64,000 bases of DNA from Candidatus Hodarchaeota archaeon (GCA_048886685.1 JBHLKM010000002.1:199532-263531); one strand, 5' to 3'; shown: positions 26,747 through 43,714, numbered from the stretch's first letter. The notes: a model not told the origin generated them from the sequence alone. Numbers and translations: made by a program.

Positions 26747-27340
26747 TTGATTATTGACCATGTTGATAAAACAATAAGTATTAAAATAGTTTATTTTGGA
26801 CCAGCACTCTCAGGGAAGACTACCTCAATTAAGACCTTATTCTCTCATTTTGGGAAAGAAGATAAGATCCTTAGTATAGAAAGTACAATAAATCGAACTT
26901 TATTTTTTGATTACGGTATAGTTTCTTTTCAGAACCAGGATTGGATTCTTAAAATTAGTGTCTATACAACAACCGGTCAAAATTTCTACTTAATAACTAG
27001 ACCAATTACTTTAAAAGCGGTCGATGGTATTATATTCGTCCTTGACTCGCAAAGAGATGTCTATGAACGTAATATGATTTCATGGAGGGAATTAATCTCT
27101 TATTTTGGGGATTCACTGGATGAATTACCAATTTTAGTTGCTTTTAATAAACAAGATTTACCAAATAAATTTACCTCAACACGATTCCTAAAAGACATTG
27201 ATTTTCATAAATATCGTAATATAGACTCAAGGTATACTATTGCTATAAGCGGAGAAGGTGTTTTGGAATGTTTCGAAGATATTTTAAGATTAATACTGAA
27301 AAAATATTACGATCATAAATTAATTTCTGCGATAAATTAA
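26747..27340 (+). CDS. MglA-like small GTPase
   Basis: IKIVYFGPALSGKTT, RTLFFDYG, TTTGQ, DGIIFVLDS, NKQD. Confidence 0.88.
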   Translation: MIIDHVDKTISIKIVYFGPALSGKTTSIKTLFSHFGKEDKILSIESTINRTLFFDYGIVSFQNQDWILKISVYTTTGQNFYLITRPITLKAVDGIIFVLDSQRDVYERNMISWRELISYFGDSLDELPILVAFNKQDLPNKFTSTRFLKDIDFHKYRNIDSRYTIAISGEGVLECFEDILRLILKKYYDHKLISAIN

Positions 27341-27358: not shown

Positions 27359-28573
27359 TTAGAAAAAGCTTGTAGTTGACACAGGTGATTGAATTCTAAT
27401 ACTCTGTTGGGTATTGTCTTCAATTATTGAAATAAGAGCTGAGATATCTTGTTTTATCTCATAAACTATTTCTTTCTCTTCACCTTTTTCCCAAGTATTA
27501 AATCCAGTTAAGTTTGGTGATGTTTCAAATAATCCCTCCTGTAATCCTAATACCTTAACTGTTACTCCATGAAGAACCTCTTTAGAGATATTTTTAATCT
27601 TTAATTTATATTTATCGATGTCAGAATCAATCGAAATTACCTTATAGGTTTTTTGAAACTTGGAAGAAACACCCTCAAATAAAGATGATGCTCCAGCAGT
27701 TCCACTAGCAAACAAATCCACCCCTACCTTTTCTTCAACCAAAGGAGTAGACGCTATATATATAGGGACTTCAAACTTTATCGGTTCCATGCCATATTCT
27801 GGTTTCTTTTTTCCAATGAATAATAGTTTCCATTGTGTATACGCTCCGTATCTAAAACCGAATTGTTCTTTTTCGGAGGGGGAATAAATAAAATTATAGG
27901 ATGGTTCAGCAATCTCGGGAACTTTCAGTAATAGAAATTCTTTTTCAAAATTTGTGGTTCGAACATCTCCAGCGATAGCAGGAGGTAATTCATCAACTTT
28001 GCTACAAGTTTGTCCATATGCCTCGCAATAGCAAACAATATTTGCATCTTGCAATAACCTTACTTCAAAATCTTTCAGTTCTTCTGAAGAAAAGTTAATT
28101 TTAATCGTTTCTCCAGGTTTAAATACATCCTTACTTAGCAAAATATTTAATCCTGATATAGAAAATGAGATCGGTTTTGGAATTTTTGCTTGGAAGCCGG
28201 AATCTTTTGCTTTTATCTCTATATCATGAGATTTATTAATTACTAAATCATCTTCTGGGTTGAGAGGATTAGGTTGTCTTAATATCAATTTTAAATAATA
28301 ATTTAATTTTCTGTTTTTAATAGTCGGTACAACGTTAGTTTTAATTAAAATAGATTTCTCTCTAATATATTCTCCTGCTTCAAAGCTTCCTTTTGAAAAT
28401 ATTTCTTCTTTTGAGACTTGTACTTCTTTTTGGCAAGGAGGATTTGTAATTAATCTAATGCCACTCCATAAAATATCAGTGTCTTCTTCAAAATTGAATT
28501 GAGTTCTGATATTTAATTTGTCCCCAATAAATACGGACCCATTATTCAAATCAGTTAACTGTAAATTTACCAA
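27359..28573 (-). CDS. Arrestin/Vps26/SpoOM-like beta-sandwich protein with an extra C-terminal domain
   Basis: Arrestin-N-like pattern (VFIGD.L...GIRL...FEAGEY....I...VVPT.....YYLKLILRQP) and arrestin-C-like pattern (LNILLSKDVFKPGETIKI). The fold assignment is by eye. Confidence 0.6.
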   Translation of the reverse strand: MVNLQLTDLNNGSVFIGDKLNIRTQFNFEEDTDILWSGIRLITNPPCQKEVQVSKEEIFSKGSFEAGEYIREKSILIKTNVVPTIKNRKLNYYLKLILRQPNPLNPEDDLVINKSHDIEIKAKDSGFQAKIPKPISFSISGLNILLSKDVFKPGETIKINFSSEELKDFEVRLLQDANIVCYCEAYGQTCSKVDELPPAIAGDVRTTNFEKEFLLLKVPEIAEPSYNFIYSPSEKEQFGFRYGAYTQWKLLFIGKKKPEYGMEPIKFEVPIYIASTPLVEEKVGVDLFASGTAGASSLFEGVSSKFQKTYKVISIDSDIDKYKLKIKNISKEVLHGVTVKVLGLQEGLFETSPNLTGFNTWEKGEEKEIVYEIKQDISALISIIEDNTQQSIRIQSPVSTTSFF

Positions 28574-28906
28574 GTCTAAAAAGATTTTAAGTAATTTTTT
28601 ATATTAATTTTATAAAAAGATAGATTTTTATAAAAACTTTTTATTATCATTTGTTAAGATTTGACGATATAAGTAAATCCTTTTTTCATTTAGGATTTTT
28701 AACCAAATTTGTGAACTTTTCTATCTATTTTCGTCAATTGCATACTTCTACAAATTGATTTTTTTAGATAACTATAATGTAAATAGGTTAACTTCCTATT
28801 TAGAATTAATATAACAAAAGATCATTTGATATTATTAGATAGTGAAGTGGTCTTCAAAAATGCACTAATTAAATAGATTTTATTTAAGGGAAAACAAAAT
28901 TTAGTG

Positions 28907-29092
28907 TCATTCTTCTTTAGTAACTTCAGCAACTTTCTAAGTATACTGAACTTTACTCATGTTATAAATTGGATACCGATTTTCTATTAATATTTTAGCT
29001 AAGCATTTGGCACATTAATATACTTCTTTAGCTCTATCCGTAAAAAAGTACATAAACAAATTCTCTTATTTTAAACAGCCCTCACATCTCAT
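28907..29092 (-). pseudogene. Degraded small zinc-finger gene (CxxC...CxxC)
   Basis: Reads MRCEGCLK*ENLFMYFFTDRAKEVY*CAKCLAKILIENRYPIYNMSKVQYT*KVAEVTKEE* in one frame, with three internal stops (TAA, TAA, TAG). Confidence 0.4.
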
Positions 29093-29294
29093 ATAATCAT
29101 TTTACCTTATAATTAAACTGAATAAAGACTTTTTGATTAAATTCTCAATAAACGAGTGTCTAAATTTTACTTCAAGATTTATTACATAAAAGTTAAGATT
29201 AAATACAAATTCTATTATATTTTTCTTTAAAATAACTTAATTTAAATCTGTTCAAATTTTATATTTACACTAATCTATTAGGTGATGATATTAC

Positions 29295-30143
29295 ATGCAT
29301 GAGCTTATATACTTCAGTATGTTTTTATTAACATTAATAAGAGTAATTGGATTTATTGTCTCTGTGAATTTTTACTACGAATCAAAATCTTATACATACA
29401 TTTATTTTACTATTGGTTGGTGTCTTTGGATTCTAGCAGGGATTGTTGCCTTACTTTCTGCCGTTGTTAAAAATCAAGTACAAGAAGATGTTTTTCTTTT
29501 GATTAATTATATTCTGGGACCTCTAGCAATATTTTTTTTAGGATCTGGCCTAAGCTCCTATTATATTAATATCTCTTCTAATAAAATTAAATTAATCTCT
29601 GCGGTTCTATTAATTTTTCCATTAATCATTAATTTCTCTTTGGGAATGAATCCTGTCGCTATATATGCCCGGATCTTTCAGTTTTTTGGAATAATCCAAA
29701 TGTTTTCATTACCTTTTTTAAAGTATAATACTTTTAAGGAAAAGATTGGAAAAAGCATTAGATGGTATTATCTGACTTGCCTTTCAATAATTCTCTATAT
29801 ACCATTAGCAATTTTAAGCATGTTAATTTCTTTAAATTCTGGCTCATTTCAAAGTCAAGATATTACTATGATCGTTGGAGCTTATACCTCCATTATTATA
29901 ATGACTATTTTAGTGATAGCTTTTATAATTCATTTAGAATACACTATATCTAATAAACAACAGAATCAATTGAAAGATAAATATTCTCACAACTTGGGCA
30001 ATATCATGCAAGTAATTTATAGTTCTGCCGATCTTTTTAAAAGGATTACCAAGTTAGATAAAATTGATAAAGATAAATTGGATTTAATTGAAAGAAAATG
30101 TAAAGAAGCTTCCGAGTTAATTAAGGAGATAAGAAAAATTTAA
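29295..30143 (+). CDS. 7TM membrane protein with C-terminal HisKA-like (H-box) helices and no HATPase domain
   Basis: Seven hydrophobic segments, then KDKYSHNLGNIMQVIYSS. SD AGGTGA upstream. Confidence 0.7.
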   Translation: MHELIYFSMFLLTLIRVIGFIVSVNFYYESKSYTYIYFTIGWCLWILAGIVALLSAVVKNQVQEDVFLLINYILGPLAIFFLGSGLSSYYINISSNKIKLISAVLLIFPLIINFSLGMNPVAIYARIFQFFGIIQMFSLPFLKYNTFKEKIGKSIRWYYLTCLSIILYIPLAILSMLISLNSGSFQSQDITMIVGAYTSIIIMTILVIAFIIHLEYTISNKQQNQLKDKYSHNLGNIMQVIYSSADLFKRITKLDKIDKDKLDLIERKCKEASELIKEIRKI

Positions 30144-30172
30144 GATACATCATCTCAATAAAAATTAATGGT

Positions 30173-30559
30173 GTGAAAATAATAGCTAAAATCTTAATAG
30201 TTGACGATGATAGAGATATCATGGATCTTTTTGAACAATTCTTGACTCTGGGGGGACATAATATTGCAGCTAGGGCTTTTAATGGTGTGGAAGCAATTAA
30301 TATTTTCAAAAATCTGCAAAATAAACCAGATATTGTTATAATGGACCACCGAATGCCCTTAAAGAATGGACTAGAAACTACAAAGGAACTAATAAAAATA
30401 AATCCTGAAAGCAAGATAATTTTTGTAAGTGCGGATTATACGGTAAGAAATGAAGCTTTTGAAGTAGGTGCTATTGATTTTTTAGAGAAACCTATAGATT
30501 TTAATACTTTGAATGCTATGATTGAGAAATATTCTTCAATCAAAAATGAAGCTATTTAA
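30173..30559 (+). CDS. Stand-alone response regulator receiver protein
   Basis: ILIVDDD, PDIVIMDHRMP..NG, IIFVSA, FLEKP. Confidence 0.92.
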   Translation: MKIIAKILIVDDDRDIMDLFEQFLTLGGHNIAARAFNGVEAINIFKNLQNKPDIVIMDHRMPLKNGLETTKELIKINPESKIIFVSADYTVRNEAFEVGAIDFLEKPIDFNTLNAMIEKYSSIKNEAI

Positions 30560-31145
30560 TATTAGCTTTGGTTTTTATAATTTGATTTATTTCTGCATAC
30601 CTAAAACAATCACTTATATGATCATTTGTCAATCCTACTGCCTGCATAAAACTATAAATAATAGTTGGACCAACAAATTTGAATCCTCGCTTCTTTAGAT
30701 CTTTACTAATCAACTCCGATTGTTCTGTTTTAGAGGGCAATTCTTTTAAAGTTTTAAATCTATTAATTATAGGCTTATCATCAACGAATTTCCATATATA
30801 ATTACTGAAAGAACCAAACTCATCTTGAATTTTTAACAAAGCCTGAGCATTAGCAATTGCAGCCTCAATTTTAAGCTTGTTTCTTATAATGCCTGCATTA
30901 TTAAGTAATTCTTCTACTTTTTTCTCATTGAATTTTGCTATTTTTTTATAATCAAATTCATCAAAGGCTCTTCTGAAATTTTCACGCTTTTGCAGAATTG
31001 TATTCCAACTTAAACCTGCTTGAGCTCCTTCCAATATTAAGAACTCAAAAAGAATTTGATCATCGTGAACTGGTGTTCCCCATTCTTTATCATGATACTC
31101 TTTCATAAGATCGTTATAATTAGCCCAACTACACCTAATTACCAT
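30552..31145 (-). CDS. tag: DNA-3-methyladenine glycosylase I
   Basis: RCSW, YHDKEWG.P, LEGAQAGLSW, IIRNKLKI, GFKFVGPT, NDH..C. Confidence 0.95.
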   Translation of the reverse strand: MVIRCSWANYNDLMKEYHDKEWGTPVHDDQILFEFLILEGAQAGLSWNTILQKRENFRRAFDEFDYKKIAKFNEKKVEELLNNAGIIRNKLKIEAAIANAQALLKIQDEFGSFSNYIWKFVDDKPIINRFKTLKELPSKTEQSELISKDLKKRGFKFVGPTIIYSFMQAVGLTNDHISDCFRYAEINQIIKTKANIK

Positions 31146-31287
31146 TATAAACCTTCTTCCAATAAAATTAGAATTTTAGCTATTAAAAGTCATAATTTCA
31201 ATAATGACTATTAAATAATTTTATTAAGATTTACATAAAAAAAAAGAATTTATTTTATTATATGATAATAAAAGATTCATATTTTAA

Positions 31288-31665
31288 TCAACCTTTATCT
31301 TTACGTAATGCCCAGAATGTCCAAATTGCCGCTGCGAGATCGATAGCACCAAAAACAATTATAAGAGCACTCACCAAGTCCAATATGACAAAAAAAATCA
31401 AGATTACAATGACCAACGCTCGTGTATGTACAGTCCACATAAAAAATTTTGTCATTCCTTCTTCATCAAGAGAGGCTCGGAGATAATAATAAGTTAAAAT
31501 TAATAAAGCGACTCCAAGAACACGGGAAGCAATATCAGGATCTGTTGGAACTGTTACTATTGTAAAAATTATTTCTGGAAAGAATAAAAATGTTATTCCT
31601 AAAAATAACACATATATACCGAATATGAAGAGAGATAAAGCAGCTCTACTCATTTCTTTAAACAT
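31288..31665 (-). CDS. Hypothetical 4-TM membrane protein
   Basis: Four hydrophobic segments. SD-like GGGTGA upstream on the minus strand. Confidence 0.7.
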   Translation of the reverse strand: MFKEMSRAALSLFIFGIYVLFLGITFLFFPEIIFTIVTVPTDPDIASRVLGVALLILTYYYLRASLDEEGMTKFFMWTVHTRALVIVILIFFVILDLVSALIIVFGAIDLAAAIWTFWALRKDKG

Positions 31666-31852
31666 TTATAGTTTCACCCTTTATTTATTGTTGTTTACAG
31701 TAATCATATGGTTCAAAATGGATTTCATTTACAAAAACGTAAATTTCCTTCTTTTATTAATTTATCTATAAAATAAAAAACAGATTAGTATTGTGTTGAA
31801 ACTTAAAAAAATAGAGAAAGAGTAAAAAATGTATTTGTTTGTTTGATTTATC

Positions 31853-32761
31853 TCAATCTGTATGAGCTGAAATAATTAGATCAGCGAATAGTTTCATATC
31901 ATTTAATAACAAATTCAATTTATCTTGAGAATCCCTGTCTAAATCTCCAGATTTCATTACAAGCACTGAAATGATGTATTTAAAGATATGAAGTTCAATT
32001 TCTTTACCGTCTGCGTCTCGACCACCGAACCTAGCGGAATCTGACATAAAAATGTTTTCTCTCACAGTATTACAAGCATTGATGAAATCTCTTAAATCTC
32101 CTCTTAAGGTTAAACCACTGCTTACTCCCTGTACGTTATGGACTATTACATTACCCGATATATCAGCAATAATTACTTTCGCTTTAATTTCATCAAGTTG
32201 TTTCTCTGCTTTTTCTACATGATCTTTCAATTCCGCATATTGAGATATTAAGATATCTCTAAATACTTTTGTTAACTTGTCTTCTTCATAGATGCTTGTA
32301 AGCATAAAATCGAAATCATAATCTTTAAACATGTCCAGAAATATTTCTTTTGCATTCTTCACATTGGTATCGAGAAGTTCTTTCTGGTAATTCTCTGTAT
32401 CATACTTATGGAGAAATAAGAAAATTTTAGGCTTTTCATTATTTTTTCGATAAAGATCTAATAAATCTATAAAATAATCCTTGGCTTGGTTAAAATTTGC
32501 TGGATCGTGTAGATCAACAATGGGAATAAGAATATCAGTTCCTTTAAATATTTCTGGCTTTTCCATGTATTCCTTTCGAAATTGTTCTTGACCTCCAAAA
32601 TCAAAGATTCCAACTTGTAAACCTAAGAAAGGATGTCTTCTAGTTTCATAGAGAATCGTTGGACTTAAACCTTTAGTGTCTTCTGGGCTTTTAGCAGCAA
32701 AAGCCACCGAATATACGCTTGTTTTACCGCAACCTGATAAACCTACGAGTGAAATTTTCAA
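31853..32761 (-). CDS. Rag/Gtr-like small GTPase with C-terminal roadblock/longin-like domain
   Basis: GLSGCGKTS, T..LSPTI, FDFGGQ, HKYD and TSIYE (Rag-type G4/G5). About 120-aa C-terminal domain containing VIIADISGNVI. Confidence 0.8.
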   Translation of the reverse strand: MKISLVGLSGCGKTSVYSVAFAAKSPEDTKGLSPTILYETRRHPFLGLQVGIFDFGGQEQFRKEYMEKPEIFKGTDILIPIVDLHDPANFNQAKDYFIDLLDLYRKNNEKPKIFLFLHKYDTENYQKELLDTNVKNAKEIFLDMFKDYDFDFMLTSIYEEDKLTKVFRDILISQYAELKDHVEKAEKQLDEIKAKVIIADISGNVIVHNVQGVSSGLTLRGDLRDFINACNTVRENIFMSDSARFGGRDADGKEIELHIFKYIISVLVMKSGDLDRDSQDKLNLLLNDMKLFADLIISAHTD

Positions 32762-32857
32762 TTTACTTCTACTCCTTTATTTTTACCTTAACGATCTAAT
32801 AATTTTTTATAATATTTTATTTCATTTAACTTTTTTAATAAAAATTTATTTAATTTT

Positions 32858-34348
32858 TTATTCTGTTGGTGCGATTTTAAATGTTCTGGAAAATATCTTG
32901 CCAAAAGTTTCAGTTGACGCTTCCACTAAAATATTTGCCATGAATGGTTCACTTTCCTTTATTTCTATAGGATATCCTATTTCGATTGTTTCGAATGGGA
33001 ATAATTCCCTTATAGTTGTAATCCAGGGTCTTTTCTCAAAGAGTTCTTCAACAGTAACAACACGAATTTTTAGATCCTCTAACACATAACCTATTGTGTT
33101 TGTAAGGGAGAGAGCTAATATCTTATCCTCTTCATTTAAAGTCTTTGAAGCACTGAGAAATTTTCTTGTTCCAAGTGGAGGTTTAACAGATATTTGTTCT
33201 GTTTCTGGTTTAGTTTCAATTCGTGGTTCTTCAATTTCCTCGGAATCTCTTACGATGAAGACTTTTCTTTTTTGTATAGTGTACTGTGATACTTTTTTGA
33301 GTTTTGCCAAAAATAACACAGCATTCAAATTGATAGCATTAAACGTTTCTATTTTAAGATAACCTTTCTCAGCAGCATCTTCTATGATTTCAGTACCTAT
33401 TCCACTTCGCGCAAAAACAGTATTTTTATTTGCACCAGAACCTACACTGCCTACGCTAATGTCAGCATTCTCTGCAGTTAAATCGGTACAGAAATTACAG
33501 CTCGAGGATTTAAATTTATCCAATTGCCTAATAGTGTATGATTTCACCGGGTCTTCCTGTGGATCATAATAAAGATGAAATTTTCCCTTATTAATATCCA
33601 TTTTTTGAACTTTTGACAAATCTATACCTTCCTTCTCAAAAAATGGATAGATAGCTTCGGGGGCAAAAGAATCCATACAAAATAACCCAATTTTAAGTAC
33701 ATGACATCTCATGAAATACTTTAGCATGCCGGTTGGACTGTCGAACATCTTTGTAACCGCATCAATATTGCATGGGGTTCCAACAAATGCAATCGATCGA
33801 AAATCTTGCCTAACAGCATCCATTAATGCTTCAACAGTTTGGGAATGACTATAAATAGAACCTGAAGCTTTAATCGCATCCTCTTTATTCGTAATAATTT
33901 GAGCAACTGGATGCCACGGTTTACTAGGATCTTTCATTGTTACAATTGCAGCATCAATTAAATGTTCATCAAACAAATAACAAAGTAAACTTGTTACTGT
34001 TCCCCCATCCTGGCCACCGATTACTTCTGGAATATTAGTATTTGCAACATATCCGGTTTTGAACACCCCCATTAATATGTATGGGTCAGTAATTGTTCGA
34101 GGACATTGATTATAACATATTCCACAACCTGTACATTTGCCTGTAAGTTTTGGTTGTCCTGCGATATCATCCCATTCCAAGACTGGACAGACTGCAGCAC
34201 AAGTTCCACATTCTGTACAAATTCCTGTACGAACAATCTCTTTCATCAACATTCCAAACGAATCTTTCTTGCCTTCAAGCTTCTTCTGGATGTACTCAAA
34301 GGAATAATCATATTGAGTTTCAGTTTTTTCTGTATTATTTTCTGTCAT
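32858..34348 (-). CDS. FrhB/FdhB-family (F420 hydrogenase/dehydrogenase beta-like) protein with ferredoxin and an extra C-terminal domain
   Basis: CTECGTCAAVCP, CTGCGICYNQCP, GQDGGTVT, VGTPC, IGLFCM, CNFCTD..A..ADISVGSVG. Confidence 0.88.
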   Translation of the reverse strand: MTENNTEKTETQYDYSFEYIQKKLEGKKDSFGMLMKEIVRTGICTECGTCAAVCPVLEWDDIAGQPKLTGKCTGCGICYNQCPRTITDPYILMGVFKTGYVANTNIPEVIGGQDGGTVTSLLCYLFDEHLIDAAIVTMKDPSKPWHPVAQIITNKEDAIKASGSIYSHSQTVEALMDAVRQDFRSIAFVGTPCNIDAVTKMFDSPTGMLKYFMRCHVLKIGLFCMDSFAPEAIYPFFEKEGIDLSKVQKMDINKGKFHLYYDPQEDPVKSYTIRQLDKFKSSSCNFCTDLTAENADISVGSVGSGANKNTVFARSGIGTEIIEDAAEKGYLKIETFNAINLNAVLFLAKLKKVSQYTIQKRKVFIVRDSEEIEEPRIETKPETEQISVKPPLGTRKFLSASKTLNEEDKILALSLTNTIGYVLEDLKIRVVTVEELFEKRPWITTIRELFPFETIEIGYPIEIKESEPFMANILVEASTETFGKIFSRTFKIAPTE

Positions 34349-34499: not shown

Positions 34500-36095
34500 T
34501 CAATTATCTAATTCTAACCTTTCTTCAATTTTTTTAATGGCATTAGATGCCCGGATTCTAACAACTCTGTGAAAATCATTAACCCTTTTAAGCAAAGCGC
34601 TTAAGGCAAGGTCATTTCCATATGTTTCTAATATTTTTATTAAACTAATTTTTACTTTAAAGTTTTCATCTGCCTCATTTCCTAGATGGTCAATAAGTAT
34701 CGCAATATTTTTGTTTAATAATCTCTTTACGTCTTCCTCATCGTCTTTTTTCTGATACCAATTATTTTGAAATATATTATAAATTGCATCAACAGTTACT
34801 TTTTTAATGAGCCAATATGAATCCTTATCTTCCAGAAGCCTAATCAAATTTTCCAGAGAATCCAGATTTCCTATTTTTCCCAAAGCGATAATAGTATTTT
34901 TTCTAACGTCCAAATTTTTTATGCTGAGCAATTTAACCAATGGTTGGACAAATTCTTCATTCCCTAACTCTCCTAGGATAAATGCAACACTTTCTCGTAT
35001 TGTATTATTCTCTCTTTCCAGACAAGAATATAGATAATCATATGAAGCATCCTGATTACTTGAATAAATTTTTTTTATAGCATCTAAGATGTATAGCTTC
35101 ATATCTAAATCGGTATATTCAAAACTTATGTCTTCGATATCTAAAATATCTAAAAGTTCTGGTACTGCAGAAAGATCTCCAATTTCACCTAAGGCTTCAA
35201 TCGATGCGATACTAACTTCATTATAAATGTTGTCTAAATTAGTAATGAGAAAATCTACAGCATTCTTAATTTTTAATTTGCCGCTTAAAATAATAGCATT
35301 TTTCCTAACAATGAAATCATCAATTAATAATAATTTTATTATTTCTCTCGCAATCTCTTCTCCCATTAATTTTAAAATTGTAATAATGGAGTTTAACAAC
35401 TCTAAATCTTCTTCTTTTAAAATCAGTGTAATAACATCAAGTAAAACATCTTTATTTTGAATTAAATTAGTTATAATCTCTGGATATTTTACTTCCATAT
35501 AACTTATATCTTCATAAGAAATGTTAATACTTGATAATTCATATCCAATTAATTTTATTAATTCCGCTTTATGCTTATTCGAAAGATATTTATTTTTTAA
35601 TGAATCTAATAATCCACTTATGAGATGTTCGGGGTTCAGGCTTAATAATTGGATTGTAATGAAATCCTTTATTGCATTGAAATTACAATCTAATTCATTA
35701 ATAAAAAGTTTGATTTCTGGTTCCTTAAATCTAATTTGCCGTATTGCTTTGAACACTGACAACTTTAATTCGTTATCGACTTGTTTCTGTTCTAATATCC
35801 ACTTTAATGGTTTTAATCCCTTTTCATGTTTTATTCTTCCTATGGCTTTCGCAGCTTCGCATTTTATCTCTACTTTTTCCTCAGAAATTAATAAATTCTC
35901 AAATATTGTAAAGCAATTATCTTTAATTTCCATAGAATTGTTGCTTATTAATGCCAAATATTTAATTGCTTCTTTTCTCTTATTGCCATCCACATCTGAT
36001 TCTATTATTTCCGTTAGCATATTTACTGAATTTTTTACCCCTAATTCTTTTCTCCTTTCAAAAATTTCTCGTGGATGGATCTTAGTTCCTAGCAT
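34500..36095 (-). CDS. HEAT-repeat (PBS-lyase type) protein
   Basis: Repeated A..ALGEIG / R..AI..LG.IG units. Confidence 0.85.
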   Translation of the reverse strand: MLGTKIHPREIFERRKELGVKNSVNMLTEIIESDVDGNKRKEAIKYLALISNNSMEIKDNCFTIFENLLISEEKVEIKCEAAKAIGRIKHEKGLKPLKWILEQKQVDNELKLSVFKAIRQIRFKEPEIKLFINELDCNFNAIKDFITIQLLSLNPEHLISGLLDSLKNKYLSNKHKAELIKLIGYELSSINISYEDISYMEVKYPEIITNLIQNKDVLLDVITLILKEEDLELLNSIITILKLMGEEIAREIIKLLLIDDFIVRKNAIILSGKLKIKNAVDFLITNLDNIYNEVSIASIEALGEIGDLSAVPELLDILDIEDISFEYTDLDMKLYILDAIKKIYSSNQDASYDYLYSCLERENNTIRESVAFILGELGNEEFVQPLVKLLSIKNLDVRKNTIIALGKIGNLDSLENLIRLLEDKDSYWLIKKVTVDAIYNIFQNNWYQKKDDEEDVKRLLNKNIAILIDHLGNEADENFKVKISLIKILETYGNDLALSALLKRVNDFHRVVRIRASNAIKKIEERLELDN

Positions 36096-39680: not shown

Positions 39681-41624
39681 ATGAATAATAAAGAAAATCA
39701 TCGGATTGGATACTATGCTTGTCAATGAGGTGTAAATATAAGAACTAAGGTAGATTGCGATGAATTAACTAATTATGTTAAGAGTCTTGGAGATGAAATT
39801 ATAATTTCGAAGAAAAACCCATTTCTATGAACTGATAATGCTCAAAATGAAATTATAGAGGACATCAAAGAAAAGAATTTAAATAGAATTGTAGCGTCCG
39901 CTTGAACTCCGCGTACACATGAGGTGATTTATAGAGGTACTATTGCTAAAACGGATTTAAATCCTTATTATTTTCAAATGGTAAATGTTCGGGAACATTG
40001 TTCTTGGTGTACAGATACTAAAGAAGAAGCTACAGAAAAGGCAAAAGTTTTAGTAAAAAGTGGCATTGAAAGAGCCAAGCGATTGGAACCTGTTCCTATT
40101 AAAACTGTTCCCGTCACTAAAGCCACTTTAGTTGTTGGAGGTGGGATAGGAGGTATGAATGCAGCTCTAGATTTAGCGAACCAAGGTATTAAAGTTTACT
40201 TAGTCGATATTAAAACAACAATCGGAGGAAGAATGGCTCAATTGGACAGAACCTTTCCAACAGACGACTGTGCGATATGAATCTGCGGTCCAAAAATGCT
40301 TGAAGTTAATAGAAATGAGAATATAGAATTATTAACATATTCTGAAGTAAAAAAAATTGAAGGATACGTTGGTAATTATAAGGTAACTATTGAGAAGAAA
40401 CCACGATACACAACTGATGAATGTAATGGTTGTGGTGCTTGCGCTGAAGTCTGTCCAGTTTATACAACGAATTATTTTGATGAGCATCTAGGTGCACGAA
40501 GAGCAATAGATATTCCATTTGGTCAGGCAGTCCCGTTTCTATATGATATTGATCGAAATGCATGTGTTGAGTGTTTTTCATGTGTAGACGCTTGTGAATT
40601 GGATGCTATTGATTTTAGCCAGGAACCTACAGAACTTAATGTTGAGGTTGGTACAATCATTATAGCGACTGGTTGGGATATACATGAACCTTTTGGCGAA
40701 TACGGATATGGAGAATTCGAAAATGTGATTACTCAAGCTCAACTAGAACGAATTTTAGCTCCAAACGGACCACTTGAAGGCCACGTACATCGAATTTCGG
40801 ATAATAAGAAACCTAAGGAAATTGTTTTCATTCAATGTGTCGGTAGTAGAGAAGAGGATAGGACTTACTGCAGCGGAGTGTGTTGCATGCTTGCTTTAAA
40901 GAATGGACGATTGCTTTTAGAAGAATTTCCTGATGCAAACATTACAATCTGTTATATTGACATAAGAACTCCTGAAAAAGGATTTGAAGAATACTATGAA
41001 CGAGCTAAAGATGCTGGTATTAGATTGATACGAGGGAAAGTAGGTGAAATTTCTGAAGATCCAGAAACAAAGAACGTGAAAGTTCGAGTATATTCAACAT
41101 TAACAGATAAAATTGTAAAAATTGATGCTGATTTAGTTGTGTTATCCACAGCAGCAATCCCTTCAAAAGGTACTCAACAGATTGTAGAACTTTTAAATCT
41201 TGATACTAATACTTATGGCTTTCTAACAGAATCACATTTCGGATTAATGCCCCAAGAAACTAAGTCAAAAGGCATTTTTATAGCTGGATTTGCTCAAGGA
41301 CCGAAAAATATTTCTTATTCCGTTTCTCAAGCTAGAGCCGCTGCTAGTAAAGTAGCGGAATTAACATCACCTGGAGAAATAGATATTGAACTAATTACTG
41401 CTGAAGTTGATAGCGATTTTTGTATCTCCTGTCGACGATGCGAAAAAGAATGCCCTAAAAATGCCATCAAGATTGAAGAAGACATCGGAGCGTTCATTGA
41501 TGAGATAAATTGCGATGGATGCGGTATCTGTGCTACATGCTGTCCTACTCAGGCAATTGATATAAGGTATTATCGAGATCATCAATTATTTGCAGAAATT
41601 GATGGAATTTTAGGAGGTGGTTAA
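39681..41624 (+). CDS. hdrA: Selenocysteine-containing heterodisulfide reductase subunit A (647 aa; Sec at codons 16, 50, 75 and 200)
   Basis: One frame from ATG 39681 to TAA 41624 with TGA at 39726, 39828, 39903 and 40278. Contexts CQUG, FLUT, SAUTPRTHE and DCAIUICGPK match CHCG, YSCS, ASCTPRTHE and DCSLCILAPK in the Cys paralogues of this window. Joins ORF-track fragments 39924-40280 and 40296-41624. Confidence 0.93.
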
Positions 41625-41627
41625 ACA

Positions 41628-42101
41628 ATGGACAACTATAATTATAAAATTGTTGCTTTTGCTTGTTTAAAATGAGGTTATAGCGCAGCGGATTTAGCAG
41701 GTGTTTCACGAATGAAATACCCTTCTTCCATAAAAATAATTAAAGTTCGTTGTACAGGAAGAGTAGATTTGAAACATATACTTTATAGCATTAAATCTGG
41801 GGCGGATGGTGTAATGCTTGCTGGTTGAAGACCCAGTGAATGCCAGTATAAAAACGGTAATTTCACGGCTAATAAACATGTCGAATTCGCAAATAGAATT
41901 TTAGAATCTAGAGGCTTCGGAAATCAAAGAATTAACATGTATTGGTTAAGTGGAGCAGAGTCAGAAAAATTTGTAAGAAGTGTAGAAGATGCTTTAGAAA
42001 AGGTAAAATCTGTTGGACCAAGCCCAATTAATTTAGTAAAACAAGAAGCAGAAATAGAAGCTAAAGAAACAAAACAAGCTATAACTACCCCTGCAGAATG
42101 A
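41628..42101 (+). CDS. vhuD: Selenocysteine-containing MvhD/VhuD [2Fe-2S] subunit (157 aa; Sec at codons 16 and 67)
   Basis: MDNYNYKIVAFACLKUGYSAADLAGVSRMKYP...VRCTGRVD...GVMLAGURPSECQY. TGA at 41673 and 41826 align with Cys of FLCNWCSY and LGCHPGDC in the MvhD paralogues. SD GGAGGTGG upstream. Missing from the ORF track. Confidence 0.93.
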
Positions 42102-42146
42102 ATCTTATAAAAAACTTTAGTTATAGGATGACTTACCTTGCGAGGG
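42088..42146 (+). ncRNA. Eukaryote-like SECIS element (cis-acting mRNA structure)
   Basis: Lower stem CCCUGCAG / CUUGCGAGGG. Core AUGA (42098-42101) opposite UGA (42129-42131). Upper stem AUCUUAUAA / UUAUAGGAU. A-rich apical loop AAAACUUUAG. Confidence 0.85.
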
Positions 42147-42184
42147 AAGGGGTCTTAAAATAGTATTCAATTAAAATAAAAAAT

Positions 42185-43714
42185 TTGTTAAATGGAAAAA
42201 TCCAAAAGGATGAGAATATGGTTCAAATTTCAAATAATGTATCTTTCAATGGAATATCCCCAAAAAATCTAATGGATGCAACATATAAAGCCATTAAAAA
42301 TTTTCAAATTCGAGCGTTCTTCGAAGCTAAAGATGAAATTTTAGAAATAGGTAAATATTCTGAAGAAGAATTTTATAAAATATTAGATGCCATGATAGAT
42401 GCTGAAACAGAGCGTAAATTAGTACTGGAGTCTTTAAGGGGTAAGGAACCGTTATTTTTAGAGGAAATTGCAAAAATTCTAAAAGACTTTCCGGCAGAAC
42501 ATGTAATTCGTGATATAATTTACCTAAAAGAACAGGGATATATTGAAGAACATATTGAAATAAAAACTAAAATAGTTATCAAGAAAATAAAGGGAGAAGA
42601 AAAAGAAGTCGAGGAACAAGAATATTTCTACAGATATCAAGTAAAAGATATACCCGAGGATTTCATTGAACATTTTTTTGAACCTGTCTCTATTGTCTTC
42701 GATTCTGAAGTATGCTGTCAATGTGGTTGGTGTTCATCTATTTGTCCTGTAAATGCCATTACAGTCACAGCAGATACTTTAGAGATCGATGATGAGACTT
42801 GTATGAAATGTGGGATCTGTTATTCTGTTTGCCCGAGATCATTTTCAATTGAACAAGCGGGTAAAAGCATAAATAAGCTTGATAAATCTTTAAAATTCTC
42901 AGAAAAAATTAATGGTTATATTAATACCTATTCTGCCTCCACCACTAAAAATGAAATTAAAAAAGTTCGACAAGATGGGGGAATTGTTACTTCTTTACTT
43001 GAATACTTACTCAAGAATAAATTAGTTGATGCAATTATAGCTGTAAAACATTCAAAGGACCTATGGAAACCAGAGCCAGTAATAGTAGAAGATGTTAAAG
43101 ATTTATACAAAACAAGTGGTACTAAATACGCTAATGCCTCAACTTTAAATATCATTGATGAAACGAAAAAGTACGAAAACATAGCAGTCGTAGGAGTTCC
43201 TTGTATGATGAATGCATTAAAAAAAGGGTATTTATTTCCAAGCGGACAACCTTTTTTCAAAAACATTAGCTATAGAATAGGGCTTTTCTGCATGGAATCT
43301 TTTCCCTATGAAGGAGTGCTTAAATTAATTAAAGATCAATTTGATAAAGATTTTAATAAAGTTACTAAAATGGATATAAGTGGGGGTAAATTTATTATAT
43401 ATTTAGATTCGGGTGAGGATTTAAGAGTACCCTTAAACGATGTTAAATCCTATGCACGCCATAATTGTCATTTTTGTGAGGATTTGACTGCCGATTATGC
43501 TGATATTTCTGTAGGATCGATTGGGTCTCCTAGTGGTTGGTCTACAGTAATTACGCGAAATGAAAAAGGTGATAAAATCTATAAAGACGCAATTAAAGCA
43601 GGATTAATTGAATCTAAAAGCTTAAAGGAGGTAAAACCAGGACAACCCTTATTAGAAAGGATTGCTGGTACAAAAAGAAAAAATTGTAAACCCATTAAAT
43701 TGGGACAAGAATAA
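42185..43714 (+). CDS. FrhB-family protein with N-terminal helical/wHTH module and ferredoxin domain
   Basis: CCQCGWCSSICP, CMKCGICYSVCP, QDGGIVT, VGVPC, IGLFCME, CHFCED...ADISVGSIG. The start may be the ATG at 42218. Confidence 0.88.
   Translation: MLNGKIQKDENMVQISNNVSFNGISPKNLMDATYKAIKNFQIRAFFEAKDEILEIGKYSEEEFYKILDAMIDAETERKLVLESLRGKEPLFLEEIAKILKDFPAEHVIRDIIYLKEQGYIEEHIEIKTKIVIKKIKGEEKEVEEQEYFYRYQVKDIPEDFIEHFFEPVSIVFDSEVCCQCGWCSSICPVNAITVTADTLEIDDETCMKCGICYSVCPRSFSIEQAGKSINKLDKSLKFSEKINGYINTYSASTTKNEIKKVRQDGGIVTSLLEYLLKNKLVDAIIAVKHSKDLWKPEPVIVEDVKDLYKTSGTKYANASTLNIIDETKKYENIAVVGVPCMMNALKKGYLFPSGQPFFKNISYRIGLFCMESFPYEGVLKLIKDQFDKDFNKVTKMDISGGKFIIYLDSGEDLRVPLNDVKSYARHNCHFCEDLTADYADISVGSIGSPSGWSTVITRNEKGDKIYKDAIKAGLIESKSLKEVKPGQPLLERIAGTKRKNCKPIKLGQE

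Follow-up and report, generated by a model that had tools for sequence, protein, structure and literature searches.

We analysed a stretch of 64,000 nucleotides (the window) from a Candidatus Hodarchaeota archaeon (GCA_048886685.1 JBHLKM010000002.1:199532-263531), which is AT-rich (~31% G+C) and whose nearest protein relatives are encoded by metagenome-assembled genomes of Promethearchaeota (Lokiarchaeia). Its minus strand carries genes for an arrestin-like protein of 404 aa (27359..28573) and for an FrhB-like iron-sulfur flavoprotein of 496 aa (32858..34348). Profile comparisons identify the C-terminal ends of both proteins, aa 310-397 of the former (27383..27646) and aa ~398-492 of the latter (32873..33157), as copies of one domain of ~90 residues, here termed the tail, which also ends the members of a third protein family. 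The three genes have been inherited together around one gene for a Rag/Gtr1-type GTPase.

The initial annotation had aligned aa 320-373 of the arrestin-like open reading frame (ORF; window 27455-27616) with aa 409-461 of the FrhB-like ORF (32966-33124) and had counted 16 identities in 54 columns with one gap; positions, sequences and counts all proved exact on recount. Whole-protein BLASTP aligned the two in this register at an E-value of 0.34. Of 2000 shuffles, 2 reached their Smith-Waterman score of 51 (z 4.5), and hhalign with shallow orthologue profiles of both tails returned P 0.04 and a probability of 1.3%. In single-sequence searches of the organism's own genome, neither tail recovered the other at E<=10. 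Such pairwise statistics are only suggestive of homology. Because BLASTP, shallow hhalign and single-sequence searches were insufficient alone, profiles that include distant orthologues were needed.

Searches of 300 Asgard genomes with the arrestin-like protein retrieved full-length orthologues down to ~30% identity, together with two tail-only matches in unrelated proteins; at one of these two loci, three neighbouring genes all end in the tail segment. A hidden Markov model (HMM 1) built from arrestin-like tails and two third-family tails, with zero FrhB-like sequences, was then run against 11,660 ORFs. It matched the arrestin-like tail at an independent E-value (i-E) of 1e-42 and the FrhB-like tail at 3.2e-6. 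Within the organism's own genome it found three proteins (the arrestin-like protein, the FrhB-like protein and a 347-residue third carrier), the next match lying at 0.012. A model of arrestin-like orthologues alone reached the FrhB-like tail at 1.6e-3. The opposite search, with a model of FrhB-like tails alone, recovered distant arrestin-like tails at 5.7e-6 to 2.5e-4, as well as a tail that in one lineage ends an NfnB/GltD-like subunit (2.6e-4). Tails of the two protein families therefore recover each other by profile in both directions. Lastly, in a Freyarchaeota-labelled genome (G038) the relationship is visible to BLASTP, the FrhB-like tail matching the arrestin-like tail at E 9e-9 and the third-family tail at 41% identity and E 5e-28. 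Chance or compositional similarity in an AT-rich genome would be compatible with the weak BLASTP and shallow-profile values for the window pair, but it is refuted by the reciprocal profile matches near 1e-6, by the absence of any match when reversed and shuffled databases were searched with the tail HMMs, and by the BLASTP values within this one relative; we give it next to no credence. On this profile evidence, both segments are copies of one domain, and the FrhB-like tail of the window is a diverged copy.

Among 26 aligned tails, which include that of the arrestin-like protein, an Asn and a Phe are invariant within the signature N-x-S...L..V.V.V...E-L-F-E...W-x-x-x-E-E. The signature N and the ELFE residues are near-invariant across carrier families, and inside each family the tail is strongly conserved. 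An AlphaFold2 model of the FrhB-like tail (predicted local distance difference test score, pLDDT, 79) is a seven-strand sandwich, and the same seven strands recur in the tail of the full-length arrestin-like model (pLDDT 83.5); three immunoglobulin (Ig)-like structures (3bga, 7kzp_P and 6ddu) are neighbours of both. The models thus agree with the initial annotation's proposal of a small Ig-like domain, predicted here as a seven-strand Ig-like beta-sandwich of ~90 residues. Its other wording, an appendage-like domain, was not established. Foldseek returned no neighbour of the tail model at E<=1e-3. VIA gave Z scores of 9-11.6 for transglutaminase, GH2 (glycosidase), ApaG and macroglobulin domains, and the ear domains scored no better than many such unrelated Ig-like domains (BBS1 GAE, Z 9.7; GGA2 GAE, Z 9.1; alpha-adaptin appendage, Z 8.9). 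The commonest weak Pfam match among the 26 tails, GAE_BBS1, occurs in five of them with a best E of 0.0027, always below the 27-bit cut-off. An identity as a GAE ear was considered but not adopted, since such weak matches are also found in CARDB/ASH-type repeat proteins and the fold scores are undistinctive. DUF7436 was likewise set aside (E 0.006, in one aligned member alone).

The fold neighbours of the tail include the Kir cytoplasmic domain, RhoGDI and the TMEM106B luminal domain, and eukaryotic Rag, Arf and arrestin systems act at membranes. Both observations would suit a tail that targets its carriers to a common non-protein site (membrane, lipid or cofactor), in the manner of E-set RhoGDI or C2-like sandwiches, so that they co-localise without binding each other. 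We consider this quite improbable: the conserved motif (E-E-L-F-E) is acidic, neither a basic nor a hydrophobic patch is evident in the sequence, and Pfam predicts a membrane domain in no carrier.

The initial annotation had called the domain undescribed, and the databases agree. All 26 aligned tails score below the cut-off of every Pfam model, CARDB (PF07705) matches none of them at E<=1, and NCBIfam has nothing on either tail of the window. A profile search of solved structures with the tail gave a single chance-level match (E 0.1), and a named-cluster search of the ESM Atlas gave nothing useful (best score 0.82). When the tail profile was compared with 1.84 billion representative proteins, there were 124 matches at E<=1e-3: arrestin-like, FrhB-like and third-family proteins, fragments, and large proteins with CARDB, ASH, Cep192 or DUF7507 repeats that matched part of the profile. 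The tail is thus rare and confined to a few Asgard architectures whose genes are syntenic, which is not the pattern of a generic CARDB-like domain found widely and unlinked. With ear and repeat Ig domains (GAE, ASH, CARDB, DUF11) it shares the seven-strand sandwich, the weak GAE_BBS1 matches and distant matches to CARDB, ASH and Cep192; it differs from them in its own signature (N-x-S...L...ELFE...W-x-x-x-EE) and in reaching no Pfam cut-off. From its rarity, its carriers and the generic nature of its structural and partial repeat matches, we conclude that the tail, which is restricted to Asgard archaea, is a small family in its own right among the many Ig-like E-set domains.

The arrestin-like carrier consists of two lobes (aa 1-278), a disordered linker (aa 279-306) and the tail. 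In the model, aa 1-278 form two consecutive beta-sandwich lobes that superpose on the Vps26/arrestin fold, in keeping with the arrestin-like fold first proposed for this protein: Foldseek found VPS26C at 1.1e-10 and Vps26 at 4.2e-10, and VIA found Spo0M (Z 14.8), Vps26 (Z 14.1 over 243 residues) and Rgp1 (Z 13.4). The Pfam families Arrestin_N, Arrestin_C and Vps26 did not match this protein at E<=1, nor did any of them appear for a distant orthologue; the sole Pfam listing for the window's protein is DUF7436, which at E 0.06 and 13.7 bits stays below its cut-off of 34.2. There are 423 homologues at E<=1e-3, of which the best 120 are 74-96% identical. Across 33 orthologues, the most distant of which are 28% identical, four cysteines (Cys47, Cys181, Cys183 and Cys190, in the pattern PPC...CxCx6C) never change; they may form a metal or redox-active site that bridges both lobes. 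Compared with Vps26, alpha-arrestins and Spo0M, the protein has the same two-lobed fold in aa 1-278, to which it adds the Ig-like tail and the four invariant cysteines, with no Pfam match; unlike for Vps26, no Vps35 or Vps29 partners are evident. A distant orthologue has a weak match to the SWIM zinc finger. Two other orthologues (G182:C85:84733-85920 and G197:C12:4554-5750) each contain one in-frame TAA, which could be a sequencing error or mark a broken gene.

A short (L/I)F(E/D) motif lies in the disordered linker just before the tail, in the window (27656-27739, minus strand) and in orthologues. It is present in six of the six arrestin-like sequences inspected, in some third-family proteins and in the GltD-like protein, and is absent from FrhB-like proteins; its candidacy as a general ligand motif was dropped because the FrhB-like family is without it.

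The FrhB-like carrier belongs to the FrhB family of iron-sulfur flavoproteins. It has two [4Fe-4S] ferredoxin motifs, FrhB_N and FrhB_C domains (together aa 36-362), a linker and the tail. In keeping with the FrhB-like label of the initial annotation, both domains score above their Pfam cut-offs (FrhB_FdhB_C, PF04432, 1.4e-39, 135.8 bits against 23.3; FrhB_FdhB_N, PF04422, 1.1e-20, 73.9 bits against 22). It is a paralogue that falls below the cut-offs of the named enzymes: NCBIfam PRK09325 scores 209 bits against 269, and the equivalog models for true FrhB (TIGR03289; 161.7 bits against 331.5) and FpoF (NF040616; 115.8 against 475) are not reached either. Like F420-dependent flavoproteins of the FrhB, FpoF and HdrA2 types, it retains intact FrhB_N and FrhB_C domains and the N-terminal 2x[4Fe-4S] motifs; it differs from them in the added tail, in its sub-cut-off scores and in a gene position beside a GTPase instead of hydrogenase subunits. 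The organism's own genome has 15 FrhB_C matches, and this paralogue is the only one of them with a tail, which is kept in 144 FrhB-like orthologues.

Sharing of the domain between the arrestin-like and FrhB-like proteins, as first described, holds, but that description overlooked a third family of carriers. Its members are ~340 residues long, with ~230 N-terminal residues followed by the tail. The copy in the organism's own genome (347 residues; G000:C2:276984-278036, equivalent to L052:6013-7056) is encoded outside the window, 45 kb downstream of the FrhB-like gene and beside a gene for a GNAT acetyltransferase. The N-terminal part has no Pfam match among 36 members and no PDB match by profile search, and a search of the own genome with PF06218 found nothing. 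The one pointer to its nature is a weak lead from the ESM Atlas, a cluster in which 19% of members carry NPR2 (score 0.89), by which the family may be a longin-like regulator. A longin reading would fit the NPRL2-like longins that have been reported as abundant in Asgard archaea (bioRxiv 10.1101/2020.10.19.343400).

Several further arrangements of third-family genes were seen. In the lineage whose NfnB-like subunit bears the tail, one row (L057:3-9918; G183:C129) runs, in order, through Rag-like, NuoE-like, NuoF-like, NuoG/molybdopterin-like, NfnA-like and tailed NfnB-like genes, the last of these closing a NuoE/NuoF/NuoG-like operon, and continues with a CBS gene and two third-family paralogues. 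A Helarchaeota-labelled protein of 641 aa (P0290) is a third-family member with an internal tail (aa 239-333); judging by its source annotation as a CBS-domain protein, it is apparently fused to CBS domains. A CBS gene is a separate neighbour in L055. Elsewhere (L047:3-1821; G108:C104), the 3' end of a gene for a product that terminates in ...DPCISCATH, like the large subunit of [NiFe]-hydrogenase, is immediately followed by a third-family gene.

Directly downstream of the FrhB-like gene in the window, on the same strand, lies a gene for a Rag/Gtr1-like GTPase of 302 aa (31853..32761; Pfam Gtr1_RagA 3.7e-25, 89.1 bits against a cut-off of 22). Its product has a P-loop (GLSGCGKTS), DFGGQ and HKYD motifs, and ~100 residues beyond the G domain; the form HKxD is typical of Rag GTPases. 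The own genome encodes ~16 strong Rag-like paralogues, of which this one alone stands in the row with the FrhB-like and arrestin-like genes. Its orthologues are 54-62% identical, making it the best-conserved member of the row. It lies between the FrhB-like and arrestin-like genes in six of the compared Asgard loci (L053-L056, L058 and L059), and in 12 of 12 distant loci it immediately precedes the arrestin-like gene. No second Rag gene was seen in the operons examined. The Rag-like gene, overlooked by the initial annotation, is the conserved centre of the operon.

The full order (third family, a variable gene, FrhB-like, Rag-like, arrestin-like), on one strand and with short gaps, occurs in L053, L054, L055 and L058, and the core order of the last three genes alone in L056 and L059. 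The core order persists across distant Asgard lineages, from Promethearchaeia (Lokiarchaeia) through to Jordarchaeia and Freyarchaeia, and a Helarchaeota-labelled record is also among the loci. In a census of 300 sampled Asgard genomes, the domain was present in 112, most commonly in three copies, the number found in the own genome. In each of the 17 genomes for which both are listed, 0.2-6.2 kb separate the arrestin-like gene from the FrhB-like gene. The distance of about 5 kb noted at the outset is true of the window; in other genomes it is ~2.2 kb. The wider spacing here is due to a genus-level insertion of three genes between the Rag-like and arrestin-like genes: a 125-aa ORF (31288-31665, minus strand), a 3-methyladenine glycosylase (30552-31145, minus strand; Pfam Adenine_glyco 1.4e-85) and a 282-aa ORF (29295-30143, plus strand). 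The full insert (29295..31665) was seen in this window, same-genus flanks show one or two of its genes, as fragments, and all three are absent from the operon in L053-L059.

The surroundings of this core are more variable. Upstream of the FrhB-like gene, the window has a gene for a HEAT-repeat protein of 531 aa (34500..36095, minus strand; Pfam HEAT_2 7.5e-33), as does L059; in the Jordarchaeia and Freyarchaeia records L053 and L054 a C25 peptidase takes this position, and in L055, from another family, a CBS protein does. At the other end, convergent with the arrestin-like gene, lies a gene for an Arf/Ras-like small GTPase of 197 aa (26747..27340, plus strand; Pfam Arf 4.1e-8). Most loci from the organism's genus and family have this GTPase gene next to the arrestin-like one. 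Further away, the window contains HdrA, VhuD and FrhB-paralogue genes (39924-43714, plus strand). Homologues of these stand beside the Rag module in other, Jordarchaeia-labelled and further Asgard loci (L054:448-4586, L056:820-4872, L055:787-2739 and L059:11471-13001), so the module keeps company with a heterodisulfide-reductase-type redox operon.

In a tree of the domain, the arrestin-like tails form one clade (support 100/99). Copies group broadly by carrier rather than by genome, with FrhB-like and third-family tails not each resolved as one clade. Grouping by carrier implies that the sharing is old and predates the split of these lineages. This bears on whether the tail could be a passive Ig-like add-on, such as a spacer or solubility domain, that spread by local duplication and has no common partner. 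Such an origin would be in line with the generic fold, which lacks a specific neighbour, with remote sequence links that lead only to the broad CARDB, ASH and DUF11 families of Ig repeats, and with the position of two of the carriers in adjacent genes, which favours local duplication. It is harder to reconcile with the strongly supported arrestin-like clade and the carrier-wise grouping, with the fact that the same three carriers keep their tails across lineages in which arrestin-like orthologues are ~30% identical, or with the strong conservation within families and of the signature N and ELFE residues across them. A passive element would also be at odds with the restriction of the tail to one of 15 FrhB paralogues and with its gain by a different redox enzyme in the same gene context. 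On balance we regard a passive add-on as unlikely.

The homology, fold class, rarity, set of carriers and conserved operon demonstrated above invite a functional reading, and from gene order and domain sharing we lean, with modest confidence, towards a reading in which the tail serves its carriers as a shared handle for docking or assembly, by which redox enzymes and adaptors would be tied to the Rag-like GTPase. The initial annotation had likewise suggested that the domain could connect its carriers to each other or to one partner, with redox state thereby coupled to signalling. As such a handle, it would give the FrhB-like, arrestin-like and third-family proteins one hub to bind, the likeliest being the co-encoded Rag-like GTPase or one another. 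Redox enzyme, adaptor and regulator would in this way be brought into one GTPase-controlled complex, and redox or energy state might be read by the Rag-like switch or act through it. Docking is supported by the homology, rarity, census, gene order and tree grouping described above, and by further observations: a different redox enzyme, the NfnB/GltD-like subunit, bears the tail beside CBS, third-family and Rag-like genes, a third-family protein is apparently fused to CBS domains, and only one paralogue each of the FrhB-like proteins (1 of 15, by its tail) and of the Rag-like proteins (1 of ~16, by its place in the row) is involved. Other points weigh against it. Because the Ig-like sandwich is a common fold without a specific structural neighbour, the fold says nothing about the partner. 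The third carrier is encoded 45-70 kb from the core in the organism's own family, different genes occupy the place between the third-family and FrhB-like genes, and the operon is interrupted in the own genus. In addition, neighbouring genes could have come to carry the same domain through local duplication, with no partner in common.

A more ambitious version of the docking proposal is that the tail acts as the physical tether of an archaeal Rag-GTPase sensing complex, on which FrhB-like or NfnB/GltD-like enzymes, a longin-type GAP-like (GTPase-activating protein-like) regulator and the arrestin-fold adaptor dock, and whose switch reads redox or energy state. We offer this only tentatively, as a possibility that is doubtful at present. 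If true, Rag-based nutrient sensing would have a prokaryotic forerunner that was connected to energy metabolism and not to amino acids. Like the eukaryotic Rag/Gtr hub (GATOR1 with Nprl2/Nprl3, FLCN-FNIP, and Ragulator/EGO), the Asgard row encodes a Gtr1/RagA-family GTPase with an HKxD motif together with dedicated accessory proteins, has a weak NPR2-like lead in its third family, and has CBS energy-sensor domains in, or fused to, the row. Unlike the eukaryotic hub, the operons examined showed no second Rag-like, Ragulator-like or TOR-kinase genes, although no systematic search was made. The candidate partners here are instead an FrhB-type flavoenzyme and an arrestin-fold protein, which share a private tail not found in eukaryotic-type families.

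Another conserved Asgard operon has been described, in which a LAMTOR1-like roadblock protein, a Rab-like GTPase and a DENN protein are encoded together (Liu et al., bioRxiv 10.1101/2020.10.19.343400). In both operons, an Asgard small-GTPase gene has putative regulators as conserved neighbours; they differ in GTPase family and in partners, and the main text of that report makes no mention of arrestin, Vps26 or FrhB. In MK-D1, small GTPase genes generally lie outside operons with roadblock, longin or TRAPPC3 genes, and gene order rarely helps to pair Asgard small GTPases with their regulators (PMC10933270). In the literature searched, on Asgard archaea and arrestin together with appendage, GAE or Rag, we met no account of a module of FrhB-like, Rag-like and arrestin-like proteins.

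Asgard genomes encode dozens of eukaryote-like small GTPases that are in need of partners and roles. For one Rag-like member of this group, a protein with an arrestin fold, a possible longin regulator and a redox enzyme now stand out as conserved, domain-tagged candidate partners. Because this candidate set is defined, the role of an archaeal Rag GTPase becomes directly testable. The tail itself defines a new small domain family that is fit for filing, and the company it keeps suggests that a eukaryote-type switch is connected with redox metabolism.

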